In this document: one piece after another, positions 8,294 to 41,080 of the stretch
Numbering within the stretch: position 1 is the first letter of the stretch
Layout of the letters: the number at the start of each line of letters is the position of its first letter
NCBI GenBank assembly: GCA_964366625.1
Contig: CAYIUH010000001.1
Location: forward strand, 1 to 45,900
DNA length: 45,900 bases
Direction of reading: 5' to 3'
From: an uncultured Candidatus Saccharibacteria bacterium
GTDB taxonomy: Bacteria > Patescibacteriota > Minisyncoccia > Phycocordibacterales > UBA9973
Position numbers and translations under genes: made by a program
The notes under the pieces: generated by a model
Databases searched by the model: none
What the model saw: only the letters and a program-made list of their open reading frames with translations
Told to the model about the DNA's origin: nothing

Positions 8294-8301
8294 CTGTTTT
8301 T

Positions 8302-8328: not shown

Positions 8329-8337
8329 AACAGCTTA

Positions 8338-9456: not shown

Positions 9457-9458
9457 CT

Positions 9459-11465: not shown

Positions 11466-11518
11466 AATTGTCTTAAGACTAAGAGCTAAAGTTCCAGAAC
11501 ATAAAATGTTATTGCCTT

Positions 11519-25684: not shown

Positions 25685-25687
25685 TAT

Positions 25688-26401
25688 TTAGATGATTTGG
25701 CTCTTTGGAGGAAATTCTTTTAGCGCAGCTTCGTAACTTTCAATTGTTCCAATATCCCGATGATATACTTTATTTTCAAAAGTATAAATTCTGCCCATAT
25801 AATTTGGAATAACATCATTACTGAAATCGATCACCTCTTTTCCGGTTTTTTCCAGGAAATCTAAAACCCCTGGCTCAAGTATATATACTGCACCATTAGC
25901 AAGGTTACCCGGAGGATGTTCAACCTTCTCATGAAAGGCAATAAGAACATCGTTTTCATCCAGTTCAACAATCCCGCAAGTTTTCGGTACATCTGTATGA
26001 AAAGTCATCATGGTTATTTCAGTTCCTTCAGGCCTGGTTTCATGCCTGCGAATAAAAGCGGCCATATCAAATTTTGATAAATTGTCTGCATGAATTAAAA
26101 TAACAGATTCATTATCAAAAAAATCCCGATTCTTCAGCAATGTTCCACCGGTGCCTAATAATTCCTCTTCATAAACAATTGTAATACGTGATTTATACTC
26201 TTCCTGTTCAAGGAACGATTTAACCTTTTCGGCAAGAAAATGGGTATTCACAAGGATATCATTTACACCACCCAAACTCAGCATTTCCAACCATAATTGC
26301 AGTAATGGTTTACCATGAATATCCACCAGGCATTTAGGAATATGGTTAGTAATGGGCCTTAAACGGGTTCCATAGCCGGCAGATAAGAGCAATGCTTTCA
26401 T
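25688..26401 (-). CDS. Sugar-1-phosphate nucleotidylyltransferase (short NTP_transferase type; HddC/MurU/LicC-like)
   Basis: 237 aa with MKALLLSAGYGTRLRPITNHIPKCLVDIHGKPLL. The ATGA start/stop overlaps the upstream kinase gene. Confidence 0.8.
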   Translation of the reverse strand: MKALLLSAGYGTRLRPITNHIPKCLVDIHGKPLLQLWLEMLSLGGVNDILVNTHFLAEKVKSFLEQEEYKSRITIVYEEELLGTGGTLLKNRDFFDNESVILIHADNLSKFDMAAFIRRHETRPEGTEITMMTFHTDVPKTCGIVELDENDVLIAFHEKVEHPPGNLANGAVYILEPGVLDFLEKTGKEVIDFSNDVIPNYMGRIYTFENKVYHRDIGTIESYEAALKEFPPKSQII

Positions 26402-27897
26402 CTATTATCTTCTTGTTTCAATTCGAATGCTATTTCTTTGGTGGTGATCGGTATGTTTCCAATTCTTCCTACCTGGCAAGCTGCGGCTAAGGAGCCCAAA
26501 TAGGCACTTTCCCAAATTGTAGCTCCAACTGCTAAAGACATAGAACAGCAAACCAAAAACGAGTCGCCTGCACCAACTACATCCTTCGGAGAGGTATTAA
26601 GGGCGGGGAGGCGGTCAAATAGATACTTTTCTTCTTCAATATAGGAAGTATGAATCAGGATTCCTTCATTCCCTAATGTGGTTACGATATTTTTTGCATC
26701 AGCGATATTTATAAGTGTCTCGGACAAAAAAGCCAATCCCGAACCAAAATCACGTAACGCCAGGCGGGTCTCTCTTTCTGTAGGGGTAAGTAGTTCCATA
26801 TGTTTGAACCTTGAGACATCACCCAATTGAGAGGATGATTGGCTATCTGCTACCATTAAAATATTTCTGTTACTGCAATATTCTATCACCTCGTCTACCA
26901 GGGATTGAGGAAGGCACCCATAATTAAAATCAGAGAATATTACCAGGTTTGCATTTTCGAGTTTCTCTATGATCGCCTGAAGCATTTTTGTTGAAATATC
27001 TTTTGTGATATCCTGCTGCCTCAAATGACTAACCCTTAAAAGGGTCTTCCCATTCGCCCTGAAGCGTTGCTTCAGGGAAGTTGGTCGGTTCTCATCTTCA
27101 AAAAAAAGTGTTTCTACACCGTATTCTACCAATTTTGACATGGCAAATTCAGCGGTTGCATCTTTTCCGGTAACTGTAAAGAAATTCACTTTAGCACCCA
27201 AGCCCGCCACATGCGCTGCGACTATACTGGCTCCTCCAACAAATTTTTGTGTATCAACGGGAGTAACCACAATAGTGGGATCCTCTTGCGACATACCCAG
27301 TGCGTCACAGGTTATATATTCGTCGACAATTAGATCGCCAATAATAACAACTTTTAGATCTTTCCACTTAGAAAGTATCTTATTCAGCTCCCCAAAGCGA
27401 ATATTGTGCCTTTTCAGAAAATCATCCGGTTTAATTATCGTTGAGGGATTGAATTCCCTGAACTGCTGCCTTAACAGATCAAGCGAGGAAAAAGTAATAT
27501 CACCTGAGCTAAACAACAATTTCCCGCCATAACCATCCACGGCTTTTTGCTCATGATTTTCCTGGAACTCATATTCGGTTCCTTTTACAACTATAACCGG
27601 TTTAAGAATACTGATAAAATCTACAGGACGGTCATCCAGTATAAATGCATAATTCACAAAACTGATGGATCTTATACCTTCTAATCTCAGCTCTTCGGGA
27701 AGGACTGCCCCCTTAGATGTTTTATTATAAACACCAACGACAAGAAAATCACCACATTCAGCTGCAAATCTTAACAGCCGCAAATGCCCCGGATGAACAA
27801 TATTAAAGTTACCCGATACAAAAACGATCCTGTTACGAGATTTCGTTTGCTCTAAAATCTGTTTTAATGCAATTTCCGAAGAAGAACTAAGTTTCAC
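26398..27897 (-). CDS. Bifunctional cytidylyltransferase-fold nucleotidyltransferase (N-terminal) plus pfkB sugar kinase (C-terminal); a domain-permuted HldE/RfaE-like protein
   Basis: 499 aa with a GTG start. The N-domain has FVSGNFNIVHPGHLRLLRFA (HxGH). The C-domain has VVIIGDLIVDEYI, GGASIVAAHVAGLG and DVVGAGDSF (pfkB signature). Confidence 0.75.
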   Translation of the reverse strand: MKLSSSSEIALKQILEQTKSRNRIVFVSGNFNIVHPGHLRLLRFAAECGDFLVVGVYNKTSKGAVLPEELRLEGIRSISFVNYAFILDDRPVDFISILKPVIVVKGTEYEFQENHEQKAVDGYGGKLLFSSGDITFSSLDLLRQQFREFNPSTIIKPDDFLKRHNIRFGELNKILSKWKDLKVVIIGDLIVDEYITCDALGMSQEDPTIVVTPVDTQKFVGGASIVAAHVAGLGAKVNFFTVTGKDATAEFAMSKLVEYGVETLFFEDENRPTSLKQRFRANGKTLLRVSHLRQQDITKDISTKMLQAIIEKLENANLVIFSDFNYGCLPQSLVDEVIEYCSNRNILMVADSQSSSQLGDVSRFKHMELLTPTERETRLALRDFGSGLAFLSETLINIADAKNIVTTLGNEGILIHTSYIEEEKYLFDRLPALNTSPKDVVGAGDSFLVCCSMSLAVGATIWESAYLGSLAAACQVGRIGNIPITTKEIAFELKQEDNR

Positions 27898-27923
27898 GCT
27901 AATTTTTTTTGAAATTAATGCCG

Positions 27924-28814
27924 TTAAAGTGCCGGCTCAGTAATACCATTACGGATATTCTCCGCAATTACAGGGATCTTATCGCGGACAAGTACCTGTG
28001 GGTTCCAACCGGTTAACTGATTGGCTTTGCTGATATCAAAAGCAAATCCTACATCTCCACCCGACATATCCGTTAGATCGGCATTTGGATTTGCTCCCAA
28101 AATAAAATCCTTTAAACAAATCATATTTTGATCTCCTCCACCCGCATGTATTTTATGACCAAATACTTTCTTTTCACAAAGTAATTCCATCAGTCTGCCT
28201 AGGTCATCGGTATGCAATGGATCTCTAAACTGCAAACCTCCCTGAGTTAGAGTAACCGGTTTATTATTAACAGCAGCCCTCACTAGTGAAACAACCCAAT
28301 TTCCGGCTGGATGATCATAATCTGTATAACAGGTAGTTAAACGGATGACATTACTATAAGGATGTGATTCAGAGATGAATTCAGAAATAATTTTAGACTT
28401 CCCATAAAAATTAAATGGAACTAATGGAAATTCTTCGCTCACTAGAAACTTTGGGCGGTAACCATCTTCTGTTTTAATGATATCATCTTCAGTATACACT
28501 GACCCTAATACCTCGCGGGTCGACATTTGGATCCACATGATTTCAGTTCCCTTTAAAATATTAGCCAGATGCCTCGCACCTCCCACATTAATGTGATCAG
28601 TCGGGGGCCCCACCTGGAAAGTAGCTGATTGCCTATCGGCCGCTACTGACAAATTGATCAGCATTTCAATGCCTTCTTTAACTAGGAAATCTGTGGTGAG
28701 AGAAAATAGGTCATCCTCGATATCCCATCCTACAACTTCATTATTATTATTTTTGAAGTATTCATGAAGGCCCCTGCCTAAATACCCTTTATGGCCGATT
28801 AGTAAAATTTTCAT
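27924..28814 (-). CDS. NAD-dependent epimerase/dehydratase/reductase (extended SDR)
   Basis: 296 aa. MKILLIGHKGYLGRGL Rossmann fold and FYGKSK (YxxxK). Confidence 0.7.
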   Translation of the reverse strand: MKILLIGHKGYLGRGLHEYFKNNNNEVVGWDIEDDLFSLTTDFLVKEGIEMLINLSVAADRQSATFQVGPPTDHINVGGARHLANILKGTEIMWIQMSTREVLGSVYTEDDIIKTEDGYRPKFLVSEEFPLVPFNFYGKSKIISEFISESHPYSNVIRLTTCYTDYDHPAGNWVVSLVRAAVNNKPVTLTQGGLQFRDPLHTDDLGRLMELLCEKKVFGHKIHAGGGDQNMICLKDFILGANPNADLTDMSGGDVGFAFDISKANQLTGWNPQVLVRDKIPVIAENIRNGITEPAL

Positions 28815-28877
28815 TTTTATATTTGCTTGTTTCTAATATGAGTAATCTTTTATATACTTTTTAAAGAGCACCTGAGT

Positions 28878-29630
28878 TTACATTCCGCCACCATCAATAC
28901 CTATAATTGATCCGGCAAAAAATGAAGCCAGGTTCGAGCAAAGGAAGGCAACCATTGGCCCTATATCTTCACCGGTTCCCAAACGGTTGATCGGCAAATG
29001 ATTCTTAAAATATTCCTGGATTGCCTCCGGATTTTCTCTTTGTAACTTCGCAAAGTGCCTTCCTTCTGAGAAAATAGCCCCTGGGGCGACTGCAGAAATA
29101 ATCACATTGTCTTTTGAAACTTCCCTATTTACTGCTTTAACATAGCCGTCTAATGCACACTTAGCAGATACATAAGCAGCATAGCCATTATACGTTTGAG
29201 TAGAAAGTGTGGAAAGCTGCACTATTCGCCCCCATTTACGTTGCGCCATTCCAGGCATAAATGCAAGATTGAGCGCATGAGAGATACCCACGTTAAAATA
29301 CCAGACCTTCTGCCAATCTTCAACAGAGCCCATTGCAGGAACTCCAAAAGAGCCTCCAAGGTTATGAACCAGAATATCTGGTTCACCGTGTTTGGAGGTA
29401 ACATATTCAACTAATTCGGAAATCGCATTCTCTTTCATTAAATCAATCGCAAAGCAGTCATGCTTACTTTCTCCATTTAATTCTTTTTTTACATTTTCAA
29501 GCTTTTCCAGAGTACGACCCACGAGAATCACTTTTACCCCTTCGTCTGCCAAAGAAATAGCGATCGCCTTTCCAATTCCCTGGCCTGCGCCTGTTACTAT
29601 TGCTAGTTTATTTTCAATGTTTAAATTCAT
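28878..29630 (-). CDS. Classical SDR oxidoreductase (FabG-like)
   Basis: 250 aa. Motifs: AIVTGAGQGIGKAIA, YVSAKCAL, and the C-terminal IGIDGG. Confidence 0.8.
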   Translation of the reverse strand: MNLNIENKLAIVTGAGQGIGKAIAISLADEGVKVILVGRTLEKLENVKKELNGESKHDCFAIDLMKENAISELVEYVTSKHGEPDILVHNLGGSFGVPAMGSVEDWQKVWYFNVGISHALNLAFMPGMAQRKWGRIVQLSTLSTQTYNGYAAYVSAKCALDGYVKAVNREVSKDNVIISAVAPGAIFSEGRHFAKLQRENPEAIQEYFKNHLPINRLGTGEDIGPMVAFLCSNLASFFAGSIIGIDGGGM

Positions 29631-29667
29631 AATTTATTATTTATAGAAAAACGTATTTAAATGGATG

Positions 29668-30186
29668 TCATGAATATTTTTCAAAAAAAGAACGGATACC
29701 TACCTTATCCCCTAATTCAGGGGCCCAATCAGCAAACAGACAATCATTTTCAGCAAAGGGCCCATTGGTAATTTCAAGGAGTGTAACAAACTCACTTTTA
29801 ATTAAGGGAGTGTGCCAGGCGTCGGTTATTGATTTTAAGTAAAATTGTTTTCCGCTTTCAAAATTGCCCATTTCGATCCTGTCGGTAACATGCCCGTTAT
29901 CATTGAAATAAAGTATTTCCATTTCACCTTCGATGATTAAGTACGATTCTGCTTTTGCTAAATGCTTATGCGGTCTTACGTAGGTATCCCTATGAAAGGT
30001 GATCATCATCTCATGAACGAGGTCATTTTTATCCTGATGAAAACATATCCGTGCCCTTTTAGTATCTAGCTCAGAGGCAATCTCTCTCTCTGTAGTTATA
30101 TCATTAGCTGTTATACTGGCAATACCATTATGAAAGGCTGTATATACTACACCTGATCTATTATTTTCTGGCCGGACGGGACTCAC
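29668..30186 (-). CDS. Cupin-fold protein, WbuC-family-like
   Basis: 172 aa: RARICFHQDKNDLVHEMMITFHRDTYVRPHKHLAKAESYLIIEGEMEILYFNDNGHV. This resembles the WbuC cupin pattern, recalled from memory. Confidence 0.5.
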   Translation of the reverse strand: MSPVRPENNRSGVVYTAFHNGIASITANDITTEREIASELDTKRARICFHQDKNDLVHEMMITFHRDTYVRPHKHLAKAESYLIIEGEMEILYFNDNGHVTDRIEMGNFESGKQFYLKSITDAWHTPLIKSEFVTLLEITNGPFAENDCLFADWAPELGDKVGIRSFFEKYS

Positions 30187-30223
30187 TAATTAGGTTCTAT
30201 GAGAAAATTTTCGCAAATATTAA

Positions 30224-31468
30224 TTAGACTACACTTAATTCAGGAAGAGGTATAATGAACTTTCCACCATGATCCGCAAAGGCTTTATTATTTGCCATGA
30301 TGGCATCCGCATAATTCCATGCAAGGATAACTACATAATCAATATCCTGATTTACCAGTTCAGCTGATGGCAATACTTGCAAATGGCTCTTGGGGCTGAA
30401 CAGGTATTGTTTTATTTTATTATCATCAACCAAAAAAAGCAACCTTGCTGAAAGTTCAAAATGCCACATCAGTGTAGTAACTGTGGTAGAAGCACCGTAA
30501 CCAGCTATCTTTTTCCCATCTTTTAAAAGCTGATCCAGAAGTTTGTTCAGCGCTTCCTTCCTTTTCAGTATATCATTATTGTACTTTATAAAGATATCTC
30601 TCTTATCGAGGCCTCTTTCCTGCTCCGTTTGAATATAGGACTGTACAATCGGTTCAACGTTATGCGCCTTTGATTCAATCCTTTTCACAAAACAGCGGAT
30701 AGAACCTCCTTTTGACCTATTCTGAATAATATTGAATATTTCAAGCCCTTTGTTTGCAAATGCTTTTTGAAGAGGATTTATAGAATGGTAAGATACGTGT
30801 TCATGATAAACGGTATCAAAAAGAAATTTATCTACAATATCAGCGAGGTAGGATACCTCAAAAACAAAGATCCCATTTTCATTTAATATCCTTTCGATGC
30901 CGCTTATAATATCTATCAAGTTATCGCTGTGTGCAAACACATTATTTGCCACCACAAGATCAGCCGACCCATACTCATTCAAAATTTGTTTGGCTAGCTC
31001 ATCTGTAAAATAAGTAGGGAGTGTTTCTACTCCGCTTTCATTTGCAGCTTTGGCAGCATCAATGGCAGGGTCGACACCTAACACCCGAATCTCTTTTTCT
31101 TTTAAGTTCAACAAAAATGTGCCGTCATTACTGCCGATCTCTACAGCAAAATCATTCTCTTTAAGTCCAAAAGTATTGATTATTTCAGCAGAATATGTTT
31201 TAAAGTGCTCAACGAGCCCCTTAAAATTAGAGGTAAAGAAAGTATAGTCCCTGAAAAGGAGATCCGGGTTAACTACATAAATGTTCTGAACATGACCGCA
31301 ATCTTCACATAAATAAAGATCGAGCGGATATGCTTCCTGCGGCTCATCTAATTTTTCCTTACTCACATAATGATCTGCAATAGGGGAAGGATTAATATTG
31401 ACAACCAATTTCAGATTAGTGGAATTACATAATCTGCATGTACTCCTTTTTGTTACTGCGTCATTCAT
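30224..31468 (-). CDS. NDP-sugar C-methyltransferase (TylCIII-like: Zn-ribbon, class I MT and C-methyltransferase C-domain)
   Basis: 414 aa. Zn ribbon CRLCNS...CEDCGHVQ. SAM motif AVEIGSNDGTFL, GVDP, VANNVFAHSDN and YHEHVSY. Confidence 0.75.
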   Translation of the reverse strand: MNDAVTKRSTCRLCNSTNLKLVVNINPSPIADHYVSKEKLDEPQEAYPLDLYLCEDCGHVQNIYVVNPDLLFRDYTFFTSNFKGLVEHFKTYSAEIINTFGLKENDFAVEIGSNDGTFLLNLKEKEIRVLGVDPAIDAAKAANESGVETLPTYFTDELAKQILNEYGSADLVVANNVFAHSDNLIDIISGIERILNENGIFVFEVSYLADIVDKFLFDTVYHEHVSYHSINPLQKAFANKGLEIFNIIQNRSKGGSIRCFVKRIESKAHNVEPIVQSYIQTEQERGLDKRDIFIKYNNDILKRKEALNKLLDQLLKDGKKIAGYGASTTVTTLMWHFELSARLLFLVDDNKIKQYLFSPKSHLQVLPSAELVNQDIDYVVILAWNYADAIMANNKAFADHGGKFIIPLPELSVV

Positions 31469-31471
31469 TAC

Positions 31472-32197
31472 TTATATTTTTTTAATTGATCTTGCAATAG
31501 ATTCGGGCCAAACAAGTGATAATCCACCGTCAATGTATAAATTTTGTCCGTTGACATACCTTGCCTGATAGCTGCACAAGAAAGTAACGACATCACTAAT
31601 TTCATCTGCCGTTCCTAATCTTTTTAATGGAACGATGTCTTTGTAGAGGTTCATCAGTTCAGTTTGACTATTATAAAAATCTTTAGATTCTTCTTTTATA
31701 AAAGTAAATGGAGTTACAGCATTTGCTCTTATCCCATTTTTGGCTAGGTTAACCGCATAATAGCGCATTAAGGTATTCATTCCAGCTTTGCCCATATGAT
31801 AACTTAAGGCCTGGCCTTCACCTACGTATTCGCCAAAAACTGAACTGACAAAAAGGATTGCATTGTCATCAGCAGAAAATTTATCCTGAAAAAATTCAAT
31901 GATTAGTTTGGAAGCTGTGATGCTCACATCTATCTCGCCGACCCATGAGTCACCAGAACCACGGTAACGTTGGGAAAATACCAGGTAGTTTATTTTACCC
32001 GCCTGAGATATTTCTTCCAATACGCCATTAACTGCATCTTTATCTTCAATATCCGCTGCAAAGTAGTTTACGTTTTCGATTTTGTTTGCCGGAATACTTC
32101 TTGAAATAACAAAAACTCTGTCGCCCCTTTCTACTAGTTTTTGGGCAACCGACCTGCCTAATCCTTTACTTCCTCCGATAATAACTGAATGTATCAT
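31472..32197 (-). CDS. Classical SDR oxidoreductase
   Basis: 241 aa. Motifs: VIIGGSKGLGRSVA, YHMGKAGM, IDGG. Confidence 0.75.
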   Translation of the reverse strand: MIHSVIIGGSKGLGRSVAQKLVERGDRVFVISRSIPANKIENVNYFAADIEDKDAVNGVLEEISQAGKINYLVFSQRYRGSGDSWVGEIDVSITASKLIIEFFQDKFSADDNAILFVSSVFGEYVGEGQALSYHMGKAGMNTLMRYYAVNLAKNGIRANAVTPFTFIKEESKDFYNSQTELMNLYKDIVPLKRLGTADEISDVVTFLCSYQARYVNGQNLYIDGGLSLVWPESIARSIKKI

Positions 32198-32208
32198 ATG
32201 ATATATAT

Positions 32209-33378
32209 TTAAATGCTTATTAATTTATTATCAAAAGCTGAATAGAACTTTCCACCATCTTTTATCATATCCTTTTTTAGCCCCATGACTTTTACCTGGC
32301 TCTCAGGGTTCAGGACTAAAATACAAATATCAGTTTCCGATAGGAATGATGAACCTTTTATTTGAATTGAAGAACCCGGCATAAATAGATCCTCCTTATC
32401 TTTTGAATCATCGATAACATAAGAAATGTATTCTTGTAGTCCGAAAAGATTGATGTATTTAACCGCAAGGTGACCTGCTCCAAAAACGGCAATCTTTTTG
32501 CCTGCTTCTGTATTAGCTTTAAAAAAATCCAGGTGCACTCGCTTTGTTGCGTCAAAGTTATTACTAAACGTATCAACGGCGGCTATTTCATCTGTGATAT
32601 CTACCTCATTATCTACGGTAACTATATTATCATGAATAGCTATTACAGCAACAAGAGAATCTTCTAAGGGAGCCTCATAACGGTATATATGAATTACTTT
32701 ATGACCTTGATTTTCAAAAAAGTACCTTAATGTATGTTCAGTAAAATAAACGATATGCTCTTCCCACATAAACGAATAATTATTTTTAGCCAGGAATTTT
32801 GAACTGTCAGGAATTTCAAATATAAGATATCCGTCAGTTTTTACCTGTTTGGTAATTCTGGTCAGAAACTTTCTCATATCATGTGCATGCTCCAATACGT
32901 GGCGCACAATTAAAAGGTCCGCATCCAACGATTGCTCGTTGCCTTCTGTAATAATTTGTTGAATTGTTTCGAGCCCATCAAACTGATCTTCCCCACTTCT
33001 TTTTTCAAAATTTGGAGCATGACCTATATTTTTAAATCCTTTTTTCTCAATCCGGTCAAGTGTCGATTCATCTTTATAGGTCAGTCCCGCTATTTTACTT
33101 TTAGTATCAATACCAGGAAGTCTAACCAGTTTTTCTACCAGATCATCAAGATGAAACTCGGGCTCGTTATATCTTATCCAGCTGAACCTCGACCTGACCA
33201 TTTCTATAGGCATTGGGTCAATCAACTGCAATAATCCACAGCTGTTGCAGATACCTAACTCTAATGAATGAGATTCTTGATCGGCATCATAAGTCACCTG
33301 GTACCGGTTACTTGGGGGCTGTTTGCCAAAATCTATTTTTGAAACAACTGCTTTTGAATTACAGGATTTACACTCCAT
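32209..33378 (-). CDS. C-methyltransferase-like paralogue with degenerate SAM motif I
   Basis: 389 aa. Zn ribbon CKSCNS...CNSCGLLQ. It is collinear with 30224-31468 (VRHVLEHAHDM, WEEHIVYF). The position of the GxGxG loop reads KIAGLTYKDES. Confidence 0.55.
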   Translation of the reverse strand: MECKSCNSKAVVSKIDFGKQPPSNRYQVTYDADQESHSLELGICNSCGLLQLIDPMPIEMVRSRFSWIRYNEPEFHLDDLVEKLVRLPGIDTKSKIAGLTYKDESTLDRIEKKGFKNIGHAPNFEKRSGEDQFDGLETIQQIITEGNEQSLDADLLIVRHVLEHAHDMRKFLTRITKQVKTDGYLIFEIPDSSKFLAKNNYSFMWEEHIVYFTEHTLRYFFENQGHKVIHIYRYEAPLEDSLVAVIAIHDNIVTVDNEVDITDEIAAVDTFSNNFDATKRVHLDFFKANTEAGKKIAVFGAGHLAVKYINLFGLQEYISYVIDDSKDKEDLFMPGSSIQIKGSSFLSETDICILVLNPESQVKVMGLKKDMIKDGGKFYSAFDNKLISI

Positions 33379-33396
33379 TTTATTGATTAAACATTA

Positions 33397-34449
33397 TTAA
33401 AGTTGAATAAGGCATCGACCCTGAATGGTTCCATTTCTCATACCTGCAATGGCTGAATTTATATCGTCGAGACTGAAAGTATCTGTGATCAATTCTTTTA
33501 ATTTCATCTTCTCCTGATTATAGAGATTGAAAAGTCTTGGAATATCTTCATTAGGCTGGCAATCTCCGCCATGTGAACCGGTCAAAACCTTCCCGAAATG
33601 AAGTGGAAGGGAATAAATAGAAATATTGTTACCAACTCGGGGAACCCCAACAAGAATCACCCTACCCTGCGGCTTTGTAATCTTATAGCCCAGTTCAATT
33701 ATTCCAGGAGAGCCTGTATTATCAATAAATACATCCGCTTTACTGTTTTTTAGAATCTCTGTGATTGCAGTACCAGCATCTTCATCTAAGCTATTTATTG
33801 TGTGTGTGGCTCCCAATTGCTTTGACAGTTCGAGCCTGTTATTATAGATATCAACAGCAATAACTGGGTTAGCGGAAACCATGTTAGCAGCCTGGATAAC
33901 ATTTAATCCAATTCCTCCAGCACCAAATACAACAACTGATTCTCCGATGCGAACCCCTGCATTATTTTCTATTATACCGAACCCGGTTGTCACTGCGCAA
34001 CCGAACAGGGCGGCTACAGGCAGATCACTATTATCATCAATAACAGTTAAACGGTTCTCTGAAACAATCGAATAATCACTAAAAGTAGTGATCCATCCTG
34101 CATTTACTCGCCTCCCCTGCCATGAATAAACAGGTGGCTCACCCTCAATGCCCGCACCTTTACGCCAATGCAAGACCACCTTTTGTCCAGGTTTTACATG
34201 CTTTACTCCAGGGCCAATACTAATTACCGTACCTGAGCCTTCATGGCCTAATAAATGAGGTAAGTATTTATCCTCACCTTTTGCACCATCAATCTCCCCT
34301 AGCTGTGATCCGCAAATACCACTAAAATGTATCTTAACCAACACCTGGCCAACTGCTAATTCCTTAGGGGTGTCTATATAATCTATTACCAACGGCTTTT
34401 TTTGCTCTACTAAAATTGCCGCCCTTATTTTTTCCGGGATAGTATTCAT
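33397..34449 (-). CDS. Zn-dependent medium-chain dehydrogenase/reductase (ADH-like)
   Basis: 350 aa. Motifs: GICGSQ, GHEGSGTV, VVVFGAGGIGLNVIQ. I see no structural-Zn Cys cluster. Confidence 0.8.
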   Translation of the reverse strand: MNTIPEKIRAAILVEQKKPLVIDYIDTPKELAVGQVLVKIHFSGICGSQLGEIDGAKGEDKYLPHLLGHEGSGTVISIGPGVKHVKPGQKVVLHWRKGAGIEGEPPVYSWQGRRVNAGWITTFSDYSIVSENRLTVIDDNSDLPVAALFGCAVTTGFGIIENNAGVRIGESVVVFGAGGIGLNVIQAANMVSANPVIAVDIYNNRLELSKQLGATHTINSLDEDAGTAITEILKNSKADVFIDNTGSPGIIELGYKITKPQGRVILVGVPRVGNNISIYSLPLHFGKVLTGSHGGDCQPNEDIPRLFNLYNQEKMKLKELITDTFSLDDINSAIAGMRNGTIQGRCLIQL

Positions 34450-34459
34450 ATTTAACAGG

Positions 34460-35131
34460 TTATTCGAAATAGATAAAAGAATAATCGCCAGTATAGCCTG
34501 TGAGCTTAAACCACCACTCCCATTCTTTTGGATTATTAAATGCTTCGCAGGTAACCTGCCAATACAATAAATTGGCTTTTTCTATTTCATTCCTGTATGA
34601 TTCTACGCATAAATAACTTCTTCCTTTACTTACTCTTTGTATTTCTTTAAGAGCGTCATAAAGATCAAAAGACTCCAGGTTATGCAAAGTATTCAGGGAG
34701 TATACAAAATCAAAAGAATTGTCTTCATAAGGCAATTTATTCGCATTGCCAAGAGTGATGAACTCGCGAATCTCCTCTTTCGAATTTTGATAAGCGTACT
34801 CAGAAACGTCTAAGCCATACACTTCGATCCCAGGCACCACCTTTGTAAAATCGAACATCAAAAATCCCTTTCCACATCCAATATCGAGTATTTTATCGCC
34901 GGCCTTTAAACCATAATGATCAGCCATTGCTTTGGCTACTTTTTCCCAGCGGCCCTCCATATAGCGATAACCACCATAGTTGACCCTGCGGTCGCCGTCC
35001 CAATAATCGAAGGCCCACTGTTTACCCAGTTCTGCCGCACGTGCTTTTGGATACTCCGGATCATTTACCCGGCCGAGATAATCGCGCTGTGTACTTTTAT
35101 GCACAACGGACATGAAATCAATGTACGACAT
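34460..35131 (-). CDS. Class I SAM-dependent methyltransferase (Methyltransf_11-like, glycan-locus type)
   Basis: Motifs: ILDIGCGKGFLMFDF, GLDVS, FDFVYSLNTLHN. I set the start at ATG 35131 (MSYIDF...). This gives a 14-nt overlap (ATGTCGTACATTGA) with the upstream gene, rather than the 22-codon extension in the ORF track. Confidence 0.75.
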   Translation of the reverse strand: MSYIDFMSVVHKSTQRDYLGRVNDPEYPKARAAELGKQWAFDYWDGDRRVNYGGYRYMEGRWEKVAKAMADHYGLKAGDKILDIGCGKGFLMFDFTKVVPGIEVYGLDVSEYAYQNSKEEIREFITLGNANKLPYEDNSFDFVYSLNTLHNLESFDLYDALKEIQRVSKGRSYLCVESYRNEIEKANLLYWQVTCEAFNNPKEWEWWFKLTGYTGDYSFIYFE

Positions 35132-36164
35132 TGGTTTTATTTTGAAAGGTTTGTAAAATATCAGCCGCTTTTTGAAGCTGGTTTTTTTTAAAGGCAACTA
35201 CCTCGAGCCCAGGATTCGAGAATTTTCTTCTTTCAAGGTGCACCGGCAGAAAAATATTCATCGCTATACAGGCCCATTTAATATGAAATAGGGGGAGCAA
35301 AATCCTCGCTCTTTTTTTTAAATAGTTCTTTTCTGGAAGTTCAGAAAATGCAAGGCTAAGAAAATATTCAAACATTTCTGCAGGAACAGGCACTTGTATC
35401 TGGGCAAAGAAGTCGCCCGACATTTTCGCAGGATCATCCCATCCTGCATATTCGAAGTCCAAAAATGTAAGTTTTCCAGTTTCTGTGGTTAACGCATTAT
35501 GAAATCCAAAATCCGAAGGTGATAAGACCTTGCAGGCAACAGGTAATTCTTCATTTAGTCCTATTTGCTGGATACCACAGGCAGTGTGAATGTTGGACAC
35601 CAATTCTACCCAAATTGACTTCATTCTATTAACCAGAACCAGGGCCCCAATATCTTCCTGCGATGACGGTATAATAGCACTTAACTGACCAATACGATCA
35701 TCAATTAATTTAATATGTTCAGCTATTGAAAAACAAGCTTCCGAAGCATTTGGCAAATAAACCGAATCAGAATGTGATGCTTTGCTGTTTAATTTCTTGA
35801 AGAAATCAGCAGCTTGTTTAACTTCGTTTTCTGATATTGATTCTTTATTCAAAGGCTTTCCCTGAATATATTCATATAAAATAAGTTTACTAACAGGATC
35901 GGCTGCAAGTATACGTGGAGTAAAGCCCGGGGCGGCTTTTTCAGCATACCTGATAAAAGCTAATTCAGTATTAAACCGGTCTCGAAGGTCACCTTCGTTC
36001 TGGAAAAAATATTTTACAAAAAAAGTATCTTCGCCAGCATGTAAAAGATAAGTGCGGTTATTGCCAATGCGATTATAGGGCGTCAAAGTGAACGGAGTAT
36101 CCTGATCCTTAACCTTCATTAAAAGTGTCCTCACTTTTTCCGATATATTGTCCAGTTCCGCCAT
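35118..36164 (-). CDS. APH/choline-kinase-fold phosphotransferase (small-molecule or sugar kinase)
   Basis: 348 aa. LSPSDFGFHNAL (catalytic loop D..N) and LTFLDFEYAGWDDP (the DFEYA motif of choline/ethanolamine/sugar-1-kinase relatives). Confidence 0.7.
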   Translation of the reverse strand: MAELDNISEKVRTLLMKVKDQDTPFTLTPYNRIGNNRTYLLHAGEDTFFVKYFFQNEGDLRDRFNTELAFIRYAEKAAPGFTPRILAADPVSKLILYEYIQGKPLNKESISENEVKQAADFFKKLNSKASHSDSVYLPNASEACFSIAEHIKLIDDRIGQLSAIIPSSQEDIGALVLVNRMKSIWVELVSNIHTACGIQQIGLNEELPVACKVLSPSDFGFHNALTTETGKLTFLDFEYAGWDDPAKMSGDFFAQIQVPVPAEMFEYFLSLAFSELPEKNYLKKRARILLPLFHIKWACIAMNIFLPVHLERRKFSNPGLEVVAFKKNQLQKAADILQTFQNKTNVVH

Positions 36165-36770: not shown

Positions 36771-36776
36771 ACTATT

Positions 36777-37700
36777 TTAAAGAGATTTAAACCGTTCGGT
36801 TATTTTTGATGCGATATTGTTGGCTACTAGTCCATATTTATCTCTTGCATATTCTTGCGATCCTATTTCGTGCATGAACTCATCAGGTGTACCAAAACTT
36901 AAATGGGGAACAGAAATATTTTGCAAGGAACGCCACTCCGCTACTGCTCCGCCGAGCCCTCCAATCAGGCCATGTTCCTCTACCGTAACCAATAATTTGA
37001 ATCGCCCAGCCGCTTGCTGCAAATAGGTTGTATCCATCGGTTTAATAGTATGCATACTTACCACTTCTGCTGATATTCCACTTTCAAAAAGCAGGTCAGC
37101 TGCTGCAAGTGCCTCAGGCATGATAGTTCCTGCAGAAATAATAGCCAAATCCTTTCCTTCGCGTACGGTAATTGCCTTACCGATCTGGAATGAGGTCAGG
37201 TCATTATGAATTTTGGGTTCGCCCTTTTTTCCTATGCGGATATAAACAGGTGTATCACCTTCAAGCGCCTGCTTTAAAGCCAATTTTAACTCCTCAGCAT
37301 CGCAAGGAGCTATTACACGCATACCAGGAAGTGTCCGTAGTATAGCCAAATCCTCCAAGGAATGATGGGTGGGGCCCAAGTCTGCATAAGATAATCCCGA
37401 TCCTGTACCTACAATAATTACCGGGGCATTATGGTAGCAAACATCTATTCTTATCTGCTCAAAACAGCGGGTTGTTGTAAAGGGAGCAATCGTATATACT
37501 ATCGCCCGCAATCCTGAAAGAGAGAGCCCGGCTGCCATACTCATCATATTAGCCTCAGCAATACCACAATTATAAAATCTACCTGGATCTACTTCTTTAA
37601 ATTTATCAAACAGCTTATTTCCAATATCCCCTGATAAAAGGACTATTCTATTATCCGTTTTAGCAAGATCGGTAATTACCTCTGCAAATGCATTTCTCAT
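36777..37700 (-). CDS. Transketolase, C-terminal (pyrimidine-binding) subunit of a split enzyme
   Basis: 307 aa. Motifs: LSGDIGNKLF, FYNCGIAEANMMSMAAGL, GPTHHSLEDLAILRTLPGM. Confidence 0.85.
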   Translation of the reverse strand: MRNAFAEVITDLAKTDNRIVLLSGDIGNKLFDKFKEVDPGRFYNCGIAEANMMSMAAGLSLSGLRAIVYTIAPFTTTRCFEQIRIDVCYHNAPVIIVGTGSGLSYADLGPTHHSLEDLAILRTLPGMRVIAPCDAEELKLALKQALEGDTPVYIRIGKKGEPKIHNDLTSFQIGKAITVREGKDLAIISAGTIMPEALAAADLLFESGISAEVVSMHTIKPMDTTYLQQAAGRFKLLVTVEEHGLIGGLGGAVAEWRSLQNISVPHLSFGTPDEFMHEIGSQEYARDKYGLVANNIASKITERFKSL

Positions 37701-37704
37701 GTTA

Positions 37705-38535
37705 TTATTTTATTCCCAATTCAATTTTAGATCTTTCTACTTCTTCTGCATTTGGTATCCGGTAGTGCCAGTTATTATCATCTTCCATAAATGAAACCCC
37801 TTTACCTTTTACAGTGTGGGCGATGATAGCAGTAGGTTTACCGTTCTCTGCAGGAAACTGGCCAAAAGCCTCCAAAAGCTGATCGATATTATGGCCATCA
37901 ACTTCAATTGTGTTCCAGCCAAAGGCTTTCCATTTATCAGCCAATGGATCAAGTGCCATAACATCCTGACTCCTGTCTGTCGCTTGCCATTTATTAAAAT
38001 CAATAATCACACATAAATTACTGATCTTTTTACCCCCTGCCAACATAGCAGCTTCCCAAATAGAACCTTCATTACATTCCCCATCACTCAATAAAGCATA
38101 TACATTGTATGCTTCTTTCGTTATCCGGGAAGCAAGCGCCATGCCCACACCCATGGGCATGCCATGACCAAGTGAACCAGTTGCAGCTTCAATACCAGCC
38201 AGGTAATCCGGAGTAGGCGGATGCTCGGCAAAAATTCCACCATCTTCACCGTAGTTATCCAACCATTCTTCCGGATAAAATCCACGCATGGCTAATACCT
38301 GGAAAAGAGCCGGGGCACCATGGCCTTTACTTAATATAAACCGGTCACGATCAGAAGACCTAGGATTGGTAGTATCTAGTTTCAATACTGAAAAGTAAAG
38401 TGTTGCGAGAATATCTACACAGGAAAGGCATGAGCCCAAATGAGGCATACTCGCTCTGTGAGAAGTTTCAATAATCCTAGCTCTTAGTACCCGAGTCTTT
38501 TGCTGAATATCGTCTATTAAAGTCATTTTAAACAC
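37705..38535 (-). CDS. Transketolase, N-terminal (ThDP-binding) subunit of a split enzyme
   Basis: 276 aa. Motifs: HLGSCLSCVDILATLYF, ILSKGHGAPALF, GSLGHGMPMGVGMA, LLSDGECNEGSIWEA. The ORF-track start is GTG 38535. ATG 38526 (MTLIDD) is an alternative. Confidence 0.85.
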   Translation of the reverse strand: MFKMTLIDDIQQKTRVLRARIIETSHRASMPHLGSCLSCVDILATLYFSVLKLDTTNPRSSDRDRFILSKGHGAPALFQVLAMRGFYPEEWLDNYGEDGGIFAEHPPTPDYLAGIEAATGSLGHGMPMGVGMALASRITKEAYNVYALLSDGECNEGSIWEAAMLAGGKKISNLCVIIDFNKWQATDRSQDVMALDPLADKWKAFGWNTIEVDGHNIDQLLEAFGQFPAENGKPTAIIAHTVKGKGVSFMEDDNNWHYRIPNAEEVERSKIELGIK

Positions 38536-38560
38536 ATTATTTGTTGAGAATAGATGAAAT

Positions 38561-39508
38561 TCATAATTGGGCTAAATTCAGATGCTTCATCCATTTTACT
38601 GTATAGCACTGATCATTTTCTACAAGTTTTCCTGATTCATACATTTCAGTTATCTCATTAATTGCGTCATCAACGCCAAATTCCTGGCGGAAGCCTGTAT
38701 TTAAAAGCTTATCAGAATTTTGTCTGTAGGAACGAGGGTCATTTGAGGCTGATACTTCAATTTCTGAAGGAATCTTTTTAGCTACCCGTTCAGCTATATC
38801 GAGGATGGATATATTTTCGAAACCTGCATTATAGGTGCCAGAAGGAATAGCAGGATTTGCCAGAAAGTGTTGATACACCCTTATCATATCCTTCATATGA
38901 ATATTCGGTCTTGTCTGATTTCCGCCAAAAACCGTGATCTTACCATTTTTTAAGGCCTGGAAGGTTAGCATGTTAACACTAACATCTAATCGCATACGTG
39001 AAGAGTAGCCGCATACAGTTGCCGGGCGGATACAATGTACCTGCATTTGATCCTTGTAACTAAGCAAAACTCGTTCAGCAACCATTTTCGTCTTATTATA
39101 TACAGATATTGGCATCAAAGGAAGATCTTCTGTAACCTGAGGTTCATCTTTTACACCGTAGACACTGCCGGAACTGGCATAGATAAACTGCTTCACACCC
39201 ATTCTTGCGGCTTTATCAGCTAATTGCTGTGCAGCCAATACGTTTACTTCCCAGGAAAGGGTAGGGTTTAGCTCTACAGCAGGATCATTGGCGATATTGG
39301 CCAAATGTATAATTGCATCTACCCCTGCCAATGGAATAATTTCTATGTTCCTTACATCATCTTTAATCATGACCAGTTTTTCGTGCGGCTGCAAGTGATT
39401 TCCAAACCATTGCGTATCCAATACAATAACATGGTGCCCATCTTTTGATAAAGCTTCTGTGAGAACTGTTCCCACGTAACCGCAACCACCGGTAACTAAT
39501 AATTTCAT
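38561..39508 (-). CDS. NAD-dependent nucleotide-sugar epimerase/reductase (extended SDR)
   Basis: 315 aa. Motifs: MKLLVTGGCGYVGTVL, SSGSVYG, YNKTK. Confidence 0.75.
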   Translation of the reverse strand: MKLLVTGGCGYVGTVLTEALSKDGHHVIVLDTQWFGNHLQPHEKLVMIKDDVRNIEIIPLAGVDAIIHLANIANDPAVELNPTLSWEVNVLAAQQLADKAARMGVKQFIYASSGSVYGVKDEPQVTEDLPLMPISVYNKTKMVAERVLLSYKDQMQVHCIRPATVCGYSSRMRLDVSVNMLTFQALKNGKITVFGGNQTRPNIHMKDMIRVYQHFLANPAIPSGTYNAGFENISILDIAERVAKKIPSEIEVSASNDPRSYRQNSDKLLNTGFRQEFGVDDAINEITEMYESGKLVENDQCYTVKWMKHLNLAQL

Positions 39509-39515
39509 TTCTTAT

Positions 39516-40508
39516 TTAAGGTTTATGTATATATTCATTAGGAAGGTTTTTCAGTACATCAAGGTTATTATCTACCCAATTTAGAGTATCAATAAGGCCT
39601 TGCTCCAAAGAAATATTGTCCTTCCATCCTAGGGAATCACGTAAATAGGAGCTTTCCAGCAAATAGGCCTGATCCTTTCCAAGCCTTTCTTCGGCTACGT
39701 CTACAGCCTCACTAAACTTAAGGTCCATCATTCTACAGATCTCATCTACAACATGCCTGATTGAAACAGAATCCCGTGTAGAAATATGGAAGGTTTCACC
39801 AGGGGTACCATTCAGGGCAATTTTATAAGTTGCATCAGCAACATCTGATATATGAATAAACGAACGCACACTGTGCCCGCCACCATGCAAGGGCAACCTG
39901 ATACCCAGACGGCCAAATAACATGGTTCTCGATATTATTCGGTATAACTGCTGTCCAGGACCATAAACATTAGCAGCCCTTGTAAAAACAACAGGAAATT
40001 TATAAGCTTTGAAGAAACTCATCAGATGAAGGTCGCACGCTGCACGAGAAACAGCATAGGGGGTGCTTGGAGCAAAATTAAAGTGCTCTTTTTGCCATCC
40101 ACCTGTACTTCCATAGGCTTCAGGTGTGGTGACATGTACATACTTCTTTAAGAAATCACATTTGCGTAGCCGATCATGAAATTTTACCTGAGCCACTACA
40201 TTGGTTTGGTACCAATGCTCTGGCTGTAGCCAGCTTTGTGCCACCATCCCCTGTGCAGCAAAATTCACAACATGGGTAGGGCGGAACTCGTTGATAAGCT
40301 CCATTAATTCATCTAATTGGTGATTCAGGTCTATAACTTTAAATGCAAAATTGCCAAGGCTATCATGCGAGGCATACGGTAAAAAAACATTGTCAGGCTG
40401 CTCCGACCTGCTCACACCAACTACATCTAATTCCTCCTGTAATAAATGGTCGACAAAATGAGATCCGGAAAAAGAGTTACTACCGATTACAAGAAATTTA
40501 TTTCTCAT
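39516..40508 (-). CDS. NDP-sugar 4,6-dehydratase-like extended SDR with atypical motifs
   Basis: 330 aa and collinear with RmlB-type dehydratases. The Rossmann motif reads IGSNSFSGSHF and the catalytic motif reads PYAVSRAA (YxxxR; codon CGT). Confidence 0.65.
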   Translation of the reverse strand: MRNKFLVIGSNSFSGSHFVDHLLQEELDVVGVSRSEQPDNVFLPYASHDSLGNFAFKVIDLNHQLDELMELINEFRPTHVVNFAAQGMVAQSWLQPEHWYQTNVVAQVKFHDRLRKCDFLKKYVHVTTPEAYGSTGGWQKEHFNFAPSTPYAVSRAACDLHLMSFFKAYKFPVVFTRAANVYGPGQQLYRIISRTMLFGRLGIRLPLHGGGHSVRSFIHISDVADATYKIALNGTPGETFHISTRDSVSIRHVVDEICRMMDLKFSEAVDVAEERLGKDQAYLLESSYLRDSLGWKDNISLEQGLIDTLNWVDNNLDVLKNLPNEYIHKP

Positions 40509-41080
40509 TATTTGATTTCATTAGTCGGATTTAAACTTAACCATTGCATGCACATATGTCCGACAATGGTTTGAAGATCTTCAGAAATCTGCATATCATC
40601 CACAGGGAAATGAATAGGCACTTGCGCAAGACTCTTGCATTTACCTCCTGAAAAACCCAGAATTGCAAAGGTTTTCATATTCATTTGATTACCAACCTCC
40701 AATGCTTTAACAACATTCGGAGAGTTACCACTACCGGAAAGAACGATAAGAACGTCGCCAGCGGAAGCTTTTACTTTTAGCTGTTGTGAAAAAATGTATT
40801 CATAACCCTCATCATTTGCAATGCAGGTTATAATTGACTGATTTGCAGGTAAAGCATCAATACGTAAGCCAATACCACTCTTTTTATCTATACCATAATT
40901 AAAATCATTGGCAAGATGTATGGCATTGCCCGCACTGCCGCCGTTACCACAAATGAATACCTGCTTTTTATTGGTCCATGCATCCTGTAGGGCAACCGCT
41001 AATAGTTCGATCTTGCCTGTCACATCTCTATTGAGGGCTAAATTCAATCTAGCTATATAATCCTGGTAATGTTTTTCCAT
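40508..41080 (-). CDS. gmhA: SIS-domain sedoheptulose-7-phosphate isomerase-like (GmhA family)
   Basis: 190 aa. Motifs: VFICGNGGSAGNAIHLANDF and LSGSGNSPNV. A TAATG stop/start overlaps the downstream gene. Confidence 0.75.
   Translation of the reverse strand: MEKHYQDYIARLNLALNRDVTGKIELLAVALQDAWTNKKQVFICGNGGSAGNAIHLANDFNYGIDKKSGIGLRIDALPANQSIITCIANDEGYEYIFSQQLKVKASAGDVLIVLSGSGNSPNVVKALEVGNQMNMKTFAILGFSGGKCKSLAQVPIHFPVDDMQISEDLQTIVGHMCMQWLSLNPTNEIK

Follow-up and report, generated by a model that had tools for sequence, protein, structure and literature searches.

The window studied here is a 45,900-nucleotide (nt) stretch at the start of contig CAYIUH010000001.1 (assembly GCA_964366625.1) from an uncultured Candidatus Saccharibacteria bacterium. 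Seventeen open reading frames (ORFs) on its minus strand fill positions 25688-41080, with junctions that range from short overlaps to gaps of up to 64 nt (Table 1). This block is an operon-like set, and a core of 9 to 11 of its genes recurs across many bacterial phyla. We propose that the block is one functional unit, in which a conserved, horizontally mobile core cassette is combined with a lineage-specific tailoring module to make a single unusual nucleotide-activated sugar. For this general scheme in full, we estimate a probability of about 0.45. The product would probably be a chain-extended or branched, methylated, heptose-derived sugar of a surface polysaccharide.

The original prediction had described seventeen contiguous, co-oriented genes that belong to no characterised pathway. 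All of them were found as minus-strand ORFs, and profile searches with the Pfam and NCBIfam libraries confirmed almost every family call. No characterised pathway or named homologue emerged, and full-text searching of the literature found no description of such a cassette. Several features have no precedent among described pathways: the cassette has a transketolase of its own whose acceptor pocket is remodelled, its HAD phosphatase and APH-fold kinase are joined into one protein in some genomes, and its class I methyltransferase shows 55-77% identity across phyla.

Recurrence of the core genes across phyla

The genome scan used an alignment of the APH-fold kinase as query and one genome per species. 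Relatives of the kinase were found in at least 566 genomes. The carriers include Beta- and Gammaproteobacteria (among them cultured Herbaspirillum, Jezberella strains and one Polaromonas genome), metagenome-assembled genomes (MAGs) of Coxiellaceae and Rhodocyclales, Planctomycetota, Verrucomicrobiota, Cyanobacteria (Microcoleus), Acidobacteriota, Elusimicrobiota, Gemmatimonadota, Omnitrophota and one archaeal MAG. Among the cultured carriers are Herbaspirillum huttiense LMG 2199 (L043), H. rhizosphaerae UMS-37 (L062), Herbaspirillum sp. GW103 (L083), Jezberella montanilacus (L027) and Microcoleus isolates (L033). Among 1.84 billion representatives, the kinase family comprised 2,722 clusters at 50% identity (E <= 1e-30). 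The fusion of a cytidylyltransferase-like domain with a PfkB kinase has thousands of homologues of the same architecture at about 60% identity. Neighbourhoods of such homologues, in one Herbaspirillum MAG and two metagenome contigs, contained the same genes in the same order.

Gene layers were defined by a tblastn matrix and all-against-all ORF clustering of the best 80 loci. Presence was counted in the 46 loci that have at least 8 kb on both sides of the kinase gene (Table 1). The typical core order in proteobacterial loci is Cj1427-like SDR, GmhA-like isomerase, RmlB-like SDR, transketolase N, transketolase C, HAD, APH, class I methyltransferase and MDR dehydrogenase. The kinase/nucleotidyltransferase fusion, with or without the NTP-transferase, is a frequent addition to this core, and the two C-methyltransferases, the WbuC cupin and the SDR reductases form a variable accessory layer. 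The RmlB-like SDR, both transketolase halves, the HAD phosphatase and the class I methyltransferase stood together beside the kinase gene in 41 of the 46 loci; in 35 loci, the MDR dehydrogenase and the Cj1427-like SDR were present as well.

The class I methyltransferase is the most conserved member, with a median identity of 65% across phyla; it has no specific relative in the PDB. Its start is most likely the ATG at 35131, which gives 223 residues as in the homologues (gene calls of 222-223 aa), and not the TTG at 35197.

Across these loci the core travelled as one cassette and did not split into unrelated known pathways, which bears out the view of the block as a unit in the original prediction. 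Loci of Herbaspirillum, Polaromonas, Coxiellaceae and Rhodocyclales MAGs, Planctomycetota, Verrucomicrobiota, Cyanobacteria and Acidobacteriota share both the gene set and its order. The flanks differ from locus to locus. They consist of Wzx/Wzy genes in the window and in L006 and L024, where the flippase gene also follows the cassette, of Wzm/Wzt ABC transporters in many Proteobacteria, and of housekeeping genes in L004. This variation of the flanks indicates that the cassette moves as a module. In cyanobacterial cassettes (L030, L033, L036, L037 and L039, from Oscillatoriales/Microcoleus), two conserved proteins of about 268 and 156 aa, which match no Pfam family, take the place of the MDR dehydrogenase. 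The same five cassettes are followed by large TPR-sulfotransferase proteins, not by classical O-antigen genes.

A DNA match to the cassette was not found in genomes of E. coli, whose O-antigens are all chemically known, and none of the best 80 loci was one whose product is chemically defined. The original prediction had named Leptospira and Coxiella polysaccharide regions, which share some of these gene types, as places to look for the block. The cassette does occur in uncultured Coxiellaceae MAGs (L011, L013 and L014), but no Leptospira locus was found among the best 80; the sole link to Leptospira is a TIGR04325 methyltransferase outside the block. A plasmid search gave a single match, a distant variant on pDCAR1 of Solidesulfovibrio carbinolicus (NZ_CP026539.1, 85653-114513; L089). 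Its HAD-APH pair is distant (28% identity) and is surrounded by a transketolase N/C pair, a second transketolase C-terminal gene and several class I methyltransferases. Further neighbours are radical SAM proteins, a PfkB protein of ~509 aa, pseB, pseC, pseF and a NeuB-like gene, which suggests a related module serving nonulosonic-acid chemistry.

Transketolase, phosphatase and kinase of the core

Both transketolase subunits are nearest to the split transketolase of Carboxydothermus. The N subunit matches 6yak (E = 1.7e-69) and the Pyr+C subunit matches 6yaj (E = 8.7e-61). To compare active-site positions, we aligned 57 N-subunit and 60 C-subunit members of the family with E. coli TktA, the numbering of which is used here. 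The thiamine diphosphate (ThDP)/Mg-binding motif (GDG...N) and the catalytic His set of transketolases are present. On the cofactor and donor side, H26, H66, H100, D155, N185 and H261 of the N subunit and E411 and H473 of the C subunit are kept; H100 is found in 49 of the 57 members and the remaining ThDP/Mg and catalytic positions in every member. The His residues that bind the C1-OH of the donor are among those kept. The substrate-distal residues, on the other hand, are replaced: H461 by G (60/60 members), D469 by L (54/60) and R520 by K (60/60). E. coli R358 and S385 lie outside the local alignment, and the Ser385/345 position appears to be a Lys, as judged from the human sequence and the 6yaj alignment, in which this Lys stands opposite the Ser taken as the Ser385 equivalent.

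These substitutions bear directly on the role of the enzyme. The original prediction favoured a transketolase that merely supplies sedoheptulose-7-P. In such a route, the heptulose phosphate would enter a standard nucleotide-heptose pathway, followed by 4,6-dehydration, epimerisation/reduction and C- and O-methylation to a methylated 6-deoxyheptose. The genes that this would call for are present (GmhA-like, PfkB, cytidylyltransferase-like, HAD, NTP-transferase, RmlB-like SDR and 3-C-methyltransferase homologues), and the enzyme keeps every cofactor-binding and catalytic His residue that marks a true transketolase. The residues that bind the phosphate and the C2-OH are nevertheless replaced throughout the family, which makes mere supply improbable. 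Moreover, the hosts would own a housekeeping transketolase, yet a cassette copy is present in 43 of the 46 loci, and its median identity across phyla is 57-60% (range about 40-75%). The route also leaves the MDR dehydrogenase without a role, and the HAD-APH pair as well where a GmhB-type HAD co-occurs. In the RmlB-like enzyme, moreover, the T-D-E and Y-x-x-x-K motifs are incomplete, the first without its Asp and the second without its Lys. We consider this route to a methylated 6-deoxyheptose unlikely. The evidence agrees better with an alternative that the original prediction also gave, namely that a keto-sugar nucleotide receives a two-carbon unit from the ThDP enzyme. The residue pattern predicts that the enzyme moves a ketol (dihydroxyethyl) unit in the ordinary way and that the partner which receives or donates it is unusual; a nucleotide-sugar carbonyl would be the obvious candidate for that partner.

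The HAD phosphatase gave no match in Pfam or NCBIfam and no sequence match in the PDB. It carries the HAD motifs DFDNT, SHKT and IDDLPE. Its predicted model (mean confidence score pLDDT 95.6) is nearest in fold to 5'(3')-deoxyribonucleotidases (structural-similarity score TM ~0.7) and not to GmhB, and the protein does not belong to the GmhB-type (histidinol-phosphatase-like) heptose-1,7-bisphosphate phosphatases.

The APH-fold kinase keeps all catalytic residues (K51, D218, N223 and D236 are invariant). Its predicted model (pLDDT 92.8) is nearest to choline/ethanolamine kinases, LicA, APH(9), NahK and MtnK at TM 0.5-0.6, which points to a likeness to small-molecule kinases at the superfamily level only; a PDB sequence search gave no significant match. 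The named members of the family bear generic labels (hypothetical protein, aminoglycoside phosphotransferase, thiamine-kinase-like). The kinase of the window is identical to MEK7818993.1, labelled 'hypothetical protein [Bacteroidota bacterium]', and the same protein is also encoded in metagenome assemblies from groundwater and elsewhere. The HAD gene adjoins the kinase gene in all 46 loci, and many independent representatives are HAD-APH fusions (HAD first, then APH; about 530-630 aa). From this constant adjacency and repeated fusion, the two would be expected to act on one molecule. One kinase homologue, P0452 (734 aa), has an N-terminal extension of 410 residues that matches no Pfam family and no protein of the window.

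The fold of the kinase raises the question whether the block makes two or more products. Here a C-methylated nucleotide-heptose would be made alongside a phosphorylated alcohol or alditol substituent; the latter would be formed by transketolase, HAD, MDR, methyltransferase and APH, and the NTP-transferase would activate it in the manner of the LicA/LicC phosphocholine, CDP-2-glycerol and CDP-alditol pathways. The predicted similarity of the kinase to choline/ethanolamine kinases and LicA, a weak similarity of the class I methyltransferase to phosphoethanolamine N-methyltransferases in the PDB, and the presence of two kinases and two nucleotidyltransferases in the block all agree with this. An MDR dehydrogenase, a kinase and an NTP-transferase are also the gene set for CDP-2-glycerol (Gtp1-3). 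Across the loci, however, the NTP-transferase is linked to the fusion and not to the APH-fold kinase, and it is missing from 32 of the 46. Transketolase, HAD, APH and methyltransferase genes are found in 40-46 of the 46 loci and lie within 8 kb of the RmlB-like and Cj1427-like SDRs, and no phosphotransferase family of the LicD or TarK type recurs among the conserved neighbours. Separate products are, in our judgement, rather improbable.

The resemblance of the HAD model to nucleotidases would also suit a reversed order of events like that leading to 3-amino-5-hydroxybenzoic acid (AHBA) and kanosamine. In aminoshikimate biosynthesis, the HAD phosphatase RifM, the kinase RifN, the split transketolase Rif15A/B and an isomerase act in that order. 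By analogy, a tailored nucleotide sugar would be released by the HAD enzyme, re-phosphorylated by the APH-fold kinase and isomerised by the SIS enzyme; the transketolase would cleave or rearrange it to a modified sugar phosphate, and the fusion and the NTP-transferase would re-activate it. This would account for two rounds of kinase and nucleotidyltransferase, but an aminotransferase or oxidoreductase of the RifK/RifL type is not part of the core, and a polysaccharide precursor would hardly call for so long and wasteful a route. We regard it as highly improbable.

Some further readings were discarded. Phosphoramidate synthesis of the O-methyl phosphoramidate (MeOPN) type was set aside as there are no glutamine-kinase-type genes. 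WbdD-like methyl-phosphate capping is conceivable for the kinase and the methyltransferase and leaves the transketolase and the SDRs unexplained. As to a cyclitol (valienol-type) pathway, no sugar-phosphate cyclase was matched among the genes scanned with Pfam.

Heptose-type genes, tailoring module and surroundings

The original prediction placed a nucleotide-heptose pathway at the heart of the block. The fusion protein contains a CTP_transf_like domain (residues 27-116) followed by a PfkB domain (residues 182-482). This order is opposite to that of HldE, in which PfkB is N-terminal and the adenylyltransferase C-terminal. The two domains are nearest to RfaE domain II (residues 17-129; 70 bits, cutoff 181) and RfaE domain I (residues 176-490; 195 bits, cutoff 345), respectively; the score against NF008454 was 168 bits (cutoff 521), and the match in the PDB was the heptose-7-P kinase 4e84. 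The GmhA-like isomerase scored 113 bits against TIGR00441 (cutoff 209). Compared with E. coli GmhA, it keeps the Zn and catalytic positions H61, D94, S119 and S124, whereas E65 is changed to D and T120 to G. The NTP-transferase gave NCBIfam matches of the ManC, RmlA, MurU and HddC types, all under their cutoffs, and its gene adjoins the fusion wherever both are found.

Two SDRs complete this group. The one at 38561 had its best PDB match in 6vo6/6vo8 (E = 1.4e-34, 123 bits); 6vo6 we take to be Cj1427, a heptose C4-dehydrogenase, and on that assumption the enzyme would be closest to Cj1427-type nucleotide-heptose C4-dehydrogenases. The function of Cj1427 has been described (PMC10680097). The RmlB-like SDR scored 181 bits against TIGR01181 (cutoff 365), and its best PDB match was the dTDP-glucose 4,6-dehydratase 6bi4 (E = 3.6e-41). 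The original prediction listed it as an RmlB-like dehydratase. A standard RmlB is not supported: its family keeps the motifs GSNSFSG, T-P-E and Y-x-x-x-R, the last two of which replace the canonical T-D-E and Y-x-x-x-K of RmlB.

Cassettes outside the Proteobacteria carry a divergent fusion with the same domain order, often together with their own SIS gene and a GmhB-type HAD (PF13242) besides the novel HAD. This arrangement, the proximity of the fusion domains to RfaE I/II and 4e84, and that of the SDR at 38561 to 6vo6 make a nucleotide-heptose start a reasonable reading of the sequences. Of the predicted heptose core, the PfkB and cytidylyltransferase-like domains fit such a start, but the phosphatase is not GmhB-like; as a GmhB-type HAD is present additionally in the cassettes of other phyla, the novel HAD would not simply perform the GmhB step. 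In all, the block works like a nucleotide-heptose tailoring pathway, yet without the HldE architecture, the GmhB-type phosphatase, the RmlB motifs and the substrate-binding residues of transketolase. The Coxiellaceae loci L011 and L014 contain two GmhA-like genes, one beside the fusion and NTP-transferase and one in the core between the SDRs. This hints that the substrate of the core isomerase may differ from that of the heptose-pathway isomerase.

The MDR dehydrogenase is nearest to class I/III alcohol dehydrogenases (ADHs) and lacks the structural-Zn loop. Equivalents of the catalytic Zn ligands, which we take to be C46, H67 and C174 in horse-liver ADH numbering, are visible.

The accessory genes are those of a sugar-tailoring module. 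Over its full length, the protein at 30224 is homologous to MtmC, TcaB9 and KijD1, which are sugar 3-C-methyltransferases. Its residues 9-414 align to the D-mycarose 3-C-methyltransferase 4rv9 (E = 3e-77), it also aligns to 5t64, and it has the three-part architecture of TylCIII/TcaB9 (Zn-binding N-terminal domain, S-adenosylmethionine domain and C-terminal sugar-binding domain). The protein at 32209 has the same three domains with weaker scores. As 3-C-methyltransferases of this kind act on nucleoside diphosphate (NDP)-4-keto sugars, an NDP-4-keto intermediate is likely in the window. The cupin at 29668 scored 121 bits against TIGR04366 (cutoff 42). The classical SDR at 28878 was found only in L001, L002, L003, L006 and L068 and, weakly (23-32% identity), in L021 and L050; the RmlD-like reductase at 27924 was found only in close relatives (L001-L003 and L006) and in L068.

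The pathway we propose has three stages. In the first, read from the homologies above, a heptulose phosphate would be converted to a heptose phosphate, a heptose bisphosphate, heptose-1-P and finally a nucleotide-heptose by the GmhA-like isomerase, the PfkB domain of the fusion, a phosphatase, and then the cytidylyltransferase-like domain of the fusion and/or the NTP-transferase. In the second, the Cj1427-like and/or the RmlB-like SDR would oxidise C4, with or without 4,6-dehydration, and the MDR dehydrogenase would make or reduce a further carbonyl. The transketolase may then move a two-carbon ketol from a ketose phosphate onto the nucleotide-sugar carbonyl, which would result in chain extension or a C-glycolyl branch. 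The APH-fold kinase would add a phosphate to an intermediate, its HAD partner would later remove it, and the class I methyltransferase would add one methyl group. The third stage, again read from homology, is specific to the window and would comprise 3-C-methylation of the TcaB9/MtmC type, a second C-methylation of the 4-keto intermediate, epimerisation by the WbuC cupin, and the action of three reductases. The finished sugar would be used by glycosyltransferases and Wzx/Wzy.

Several points weigh against this scheme. All substrates of the second stage are inferred. The GmhA-like isomerase, the RmlB-like SDR, the fusion and the NTP-transferase all score under the curated cutoffs of the families they resemble, and the Y-x-x-x-R motif makes the chemistry assigned to the RmlB-like enzyme tentative. 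With choline/ethanolamine kinases as the nearest folds of the APH-fold kinase, a non-sugar alcohol would fit as its substrate too. Two kinases and two nucleotidyltransferases are awkward for a single linear pathway. Finally, many proteobacterial loci consist of a nine-gene core with no kinase/nucleotidyltransferase fusion within 10 kb, which implies either that the activated precursor comes from elsewhere or that the core acts on sugar phosphates.

The whole window is a single co-oriented polysaccharide locus of the Wzx/Wzy type. The Wzx-like flippase gene lies directly downstream of the block, which suggests that the product is exported as an O-unit. Farther downstream than Wzx and Wzy are genes for glycosyltransferases, FkbM methyltransferases, FdtA, a DegT aminotransferase and FnlA/B/C. 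Upstream of the block are a UDP-glucose dehydrogenase and a DAO-family oxidoreductase. A gene of the DAO family also precedes the cassette in the same orientation in six further loci (L011-L014, L016 and L028), and the one in the window may be an accessory member of the cassette outside its earlier boundaries.

In a scan for promoters and terminators, promoter-like sites were as frequent as expected from shuffled sequence and did not mark operon boundaries. Terminator-like sites were slightly more frequent than in shuffled sequence (22 versus 14.5, standard deviation 3.7) and did not mark them either. The G+C content changes from 0.23-0.33 at the left end of the window (1-12000) to 0.37-0.42 over the cassette (25500-40500), a contrast consistent with a mosaic locus and horizontal acquisition of the cassette. 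Two adjoining short minus-strand ORFs at 23357-23809 and 23831-24208 match the C- and N-terminal parts of one TIGR04325 (LIC12133-type) methyltransferase. The pair represents a single gene that has been split or frameshifted, and since both calls recur in the independent assemblies L001 and L003, an assembly error is improbable. The minus-strand ORF at 41108-41983 has only the central and C-terminal domains of a UDP-glucose/GDP-mannose dehydrogenase, without the N-terminal domain that binds nicotinamide adenine dinucleotide (NAD), and seems to be a shortened paralogue of the gene at 44381-45700, which is intact.

Table 1. Genes of the block and selected neighbours in the window. The last column gives presence among the 46 loci with at least 8 kb on both sides of the APH-fold kinase gene.
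Feature	Position	Strand	Layer or location	Basis of assignment	Loci
GmhA-like SIS sugar-phosphate isomerase	40508..41080	-	core	PF13580	26/46
Atypical RmlB-like extended SDR	39516..40508	-	core	TIGR01181 below cutoff, PDB 6bi4	44/46
Extended SDR, Cj1427-like	38561..39508	-	core	GxxGxxG, S and YxxxK motifs; PDB 6vo6/6vo8	42/46
Transketolase N-terminal (PP-domain) subunit	37705..38535	-	core	PF00456	43/46
Transketolase Pyr+C subunit, altered substrate pocket	36777..37700	-	core	PF02779, PF02780	43/46
HAD-superfamily phosphatase, novel subfamily, 201 aa	36165..36770	-	core	HAD motifs, predicted fold	46/46
APH/choline-kinase-fold small-molecule kinase	35118..36164	-	core, family marker	weak PF01636	
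Class I SAM methyltransferase, 223 aa	34460..35131	-	core	several Methyltransf Pfam matches	44/46
Zn-dependent MDR alcohol dehydrogenase	33397..34449	-	core	PF08240, PF00107	38/46
TylCIII-type C-methyltransferase paralogue	32209..33378	-	accessory	PF08421, PF13489, PF08484	23/46, position variable
Classical SDR, probable ketoreductase	31472..32197	-	accessory	PF13561	15/46
NDP-4-keto-sugar 3-C-methyltransferase homologue	30224..31468	-	accessory	PF08421, methyltransferase domain, PF08484	26/46
WbuC-family cupin (DUF6016), possible epimerase/isomerase	29668..30186	-	accessory	TIGR04366, PF19480	23/46
Classical SDR	28878..29630	-	lineage-specific accessory	PF00106, PF13561	
RmlD-like extended SDR reductase	27924..28814	-	lineage-specific accessory	PF04321, PF01370	
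Reversed HldE-like fusion, cytidylyltransferase-like then PfkB	26398..27897	-		CTP_transf_like, PfkB and RfaE domains	34/46 (either type of kinase/nucleotidyltransferase fusion)
Sugar-1-phosphate nucleotidyltransferase	25688..26401	-		PF00483 (NTP_transferase)	14/46
DAO-family flavin adenine dinucleotide (FAD) oxidoreductase, possible extra member	42199..43398	-	outside block	PF01266	
Wzx-like flippase	24260..25684	-	directly downstream of block	NF041503 5e-11, 42 vs cut-off 300 bits	
Wzy	20746-22065		downstream of block	Wzy_C	

Relation to known systems

The GDP-heptose pathways of the Campylobacter jejuni capsule comprise GmhA, HddA, GmhB, HddC, the C4-dehydrogenase Cj1427, a C4,6-dehydratase, C3/C5 epimerases and C4 reductases (PMC10680097). 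The scheme proposed here from the genes shares with them the start from sedoheptulose-7-P, the nucleotide-heptose, the 4-keto intermediate and tailoring by a cupin and SDRs, and the likeness extends to the SDR nearest to 6vo6 and the HddC-like similarity of the NTP-transferase. The C. jejuni pathways differ in having no transketolase, APH-fold kinase, novel HAD, MDR dehydrogenase or class I methyltransferase core (the word 'transketolase' has 0 occurrences in PMC10680097). The kinases differ as well: the window has a PfkB domain behind a cytidylyltransferase-like domain, C. jejuni the GHMP kinase HddA. With the ADP-L-glycero-D-manno-heptose pathway (GmhA, HldE, GmhB and HldD), the block has RfaE I/II-like domains and a GmhA-family isomerase in common; it is set apart by the reversed domain order, the sub-cutoff scores, the non-GmhB HAD and many extra enzymes.

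Higher sugars are also built in the lincosamide octose pathway by the transaldolase LmbR, the isomerase LmbN, the kinase LmbP, the phosphatase LmbK and the nucleotidyltransferase LmbO. The logic is shared, in that a C-C transferase builds a higher ketose phosphate and a GmhA-like isomerase, a kinase, a HAD enzyme and a nucleotidyltransferase follow. The lincosamide pathway, however, uses a transaldolase (C3 unit) and another kinase family and belongs to an actinomycete antibiotic cluster, not to a widespread polysaccharide cassette.

Two-carbon branches are introduced into NDP-4-keto sugars by YerE (yersiniose A) and by E1-like enzymes (aldgarose and eurekanate). These enzymes are members of the acetolactate-synthase or pyruvate-dehydrogenase-E1 families, with pyruvate as their substrate. 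As in these systems, a ThDP enzyme stands beside a 4,6-dehydratase-like SDR and ketoreductases in the window, and the proposed chemistry is the same, a ThDP-bound C2 carbanion attacking a nucleotide-sugar carbonyl. Unlike YerE, the enzyme of the window is a true split transketolase, and its conserved donor-side His residues lead us to predict a dihydroxyethyl (glycolaldehyde) unit. If this is true, the cassette represents a new way of building higher-carbon or branched sugars. Solving it would assign a function to thousands of genes of environmental and plant-associated bacteria, and the cultured carriers (Herbaspirillum, Jezberella and Microcoleus) allow direct testing.

The cassette may also account for the biosynthesis of bradyrhizose, an O-antigen sugar of photosynthetic Bradyrhizobium that is immunologically silent. 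Busset et al. (2016, PMC4743980) describe a bradyrhizose O-antigen that is abolished by loss of gdh (dehydratase-like), place gdh in an operon of eleven 'sugar modification' genes with perfect synteny, and state that the genes for bradyrhizose synthesis are unknown. Bradyrhizose is a ten-carbon bicyclic sugar in which OH-4, OH-5 and OH-9 are each able to close onto C1 (PMC9912281). From these ring closures, we deduced a quaternary C4 and a C4-C9 carbocycle. A heptose (seven carbons), a transketolase unit (two) and a methyl group (one) likewise add up to ten carbons, which is suggestive only. The alphaproteobacterial locus L038 contains exactly eleven cassette genes; a Bradyrhizobium entry was absent from the best-80 and best-120 ranked lists of kinase relatives. 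If the Bradyrhizobium operon proves identical, the cassette would represent the genes for a known sugar.

That the 9-11-gene core is the pathway for bradyrhizose-type, inositol-fused (carbocyclic) C10 sugars, spread over many phyla, is a doubtful but specific extension of the general scheme. The nucleotide-heptose would be oxidised at C4 and at the terminal carbon, and the transketolase would add C8-C9 to the nucleotide-sugar aldehyde. The APH-fold kinase would phosphorylate the new terminal hydroxyl, and the class I methyltransferase would C-methylate the activated carbon to give C10. An intramolecular aldol reaction like that of inositol-phosphate synthase, of C9 on the C4 ketone, would close the carbocycle, and the HAD phosphatase would remove the phosphate. 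The extra C-methyltransferases of the window would then lead to a still more substituted relative. With two C-methyltransferases, a cupin and three reductases added to the core, the product of the window would differ from bradyrhizose in any case.

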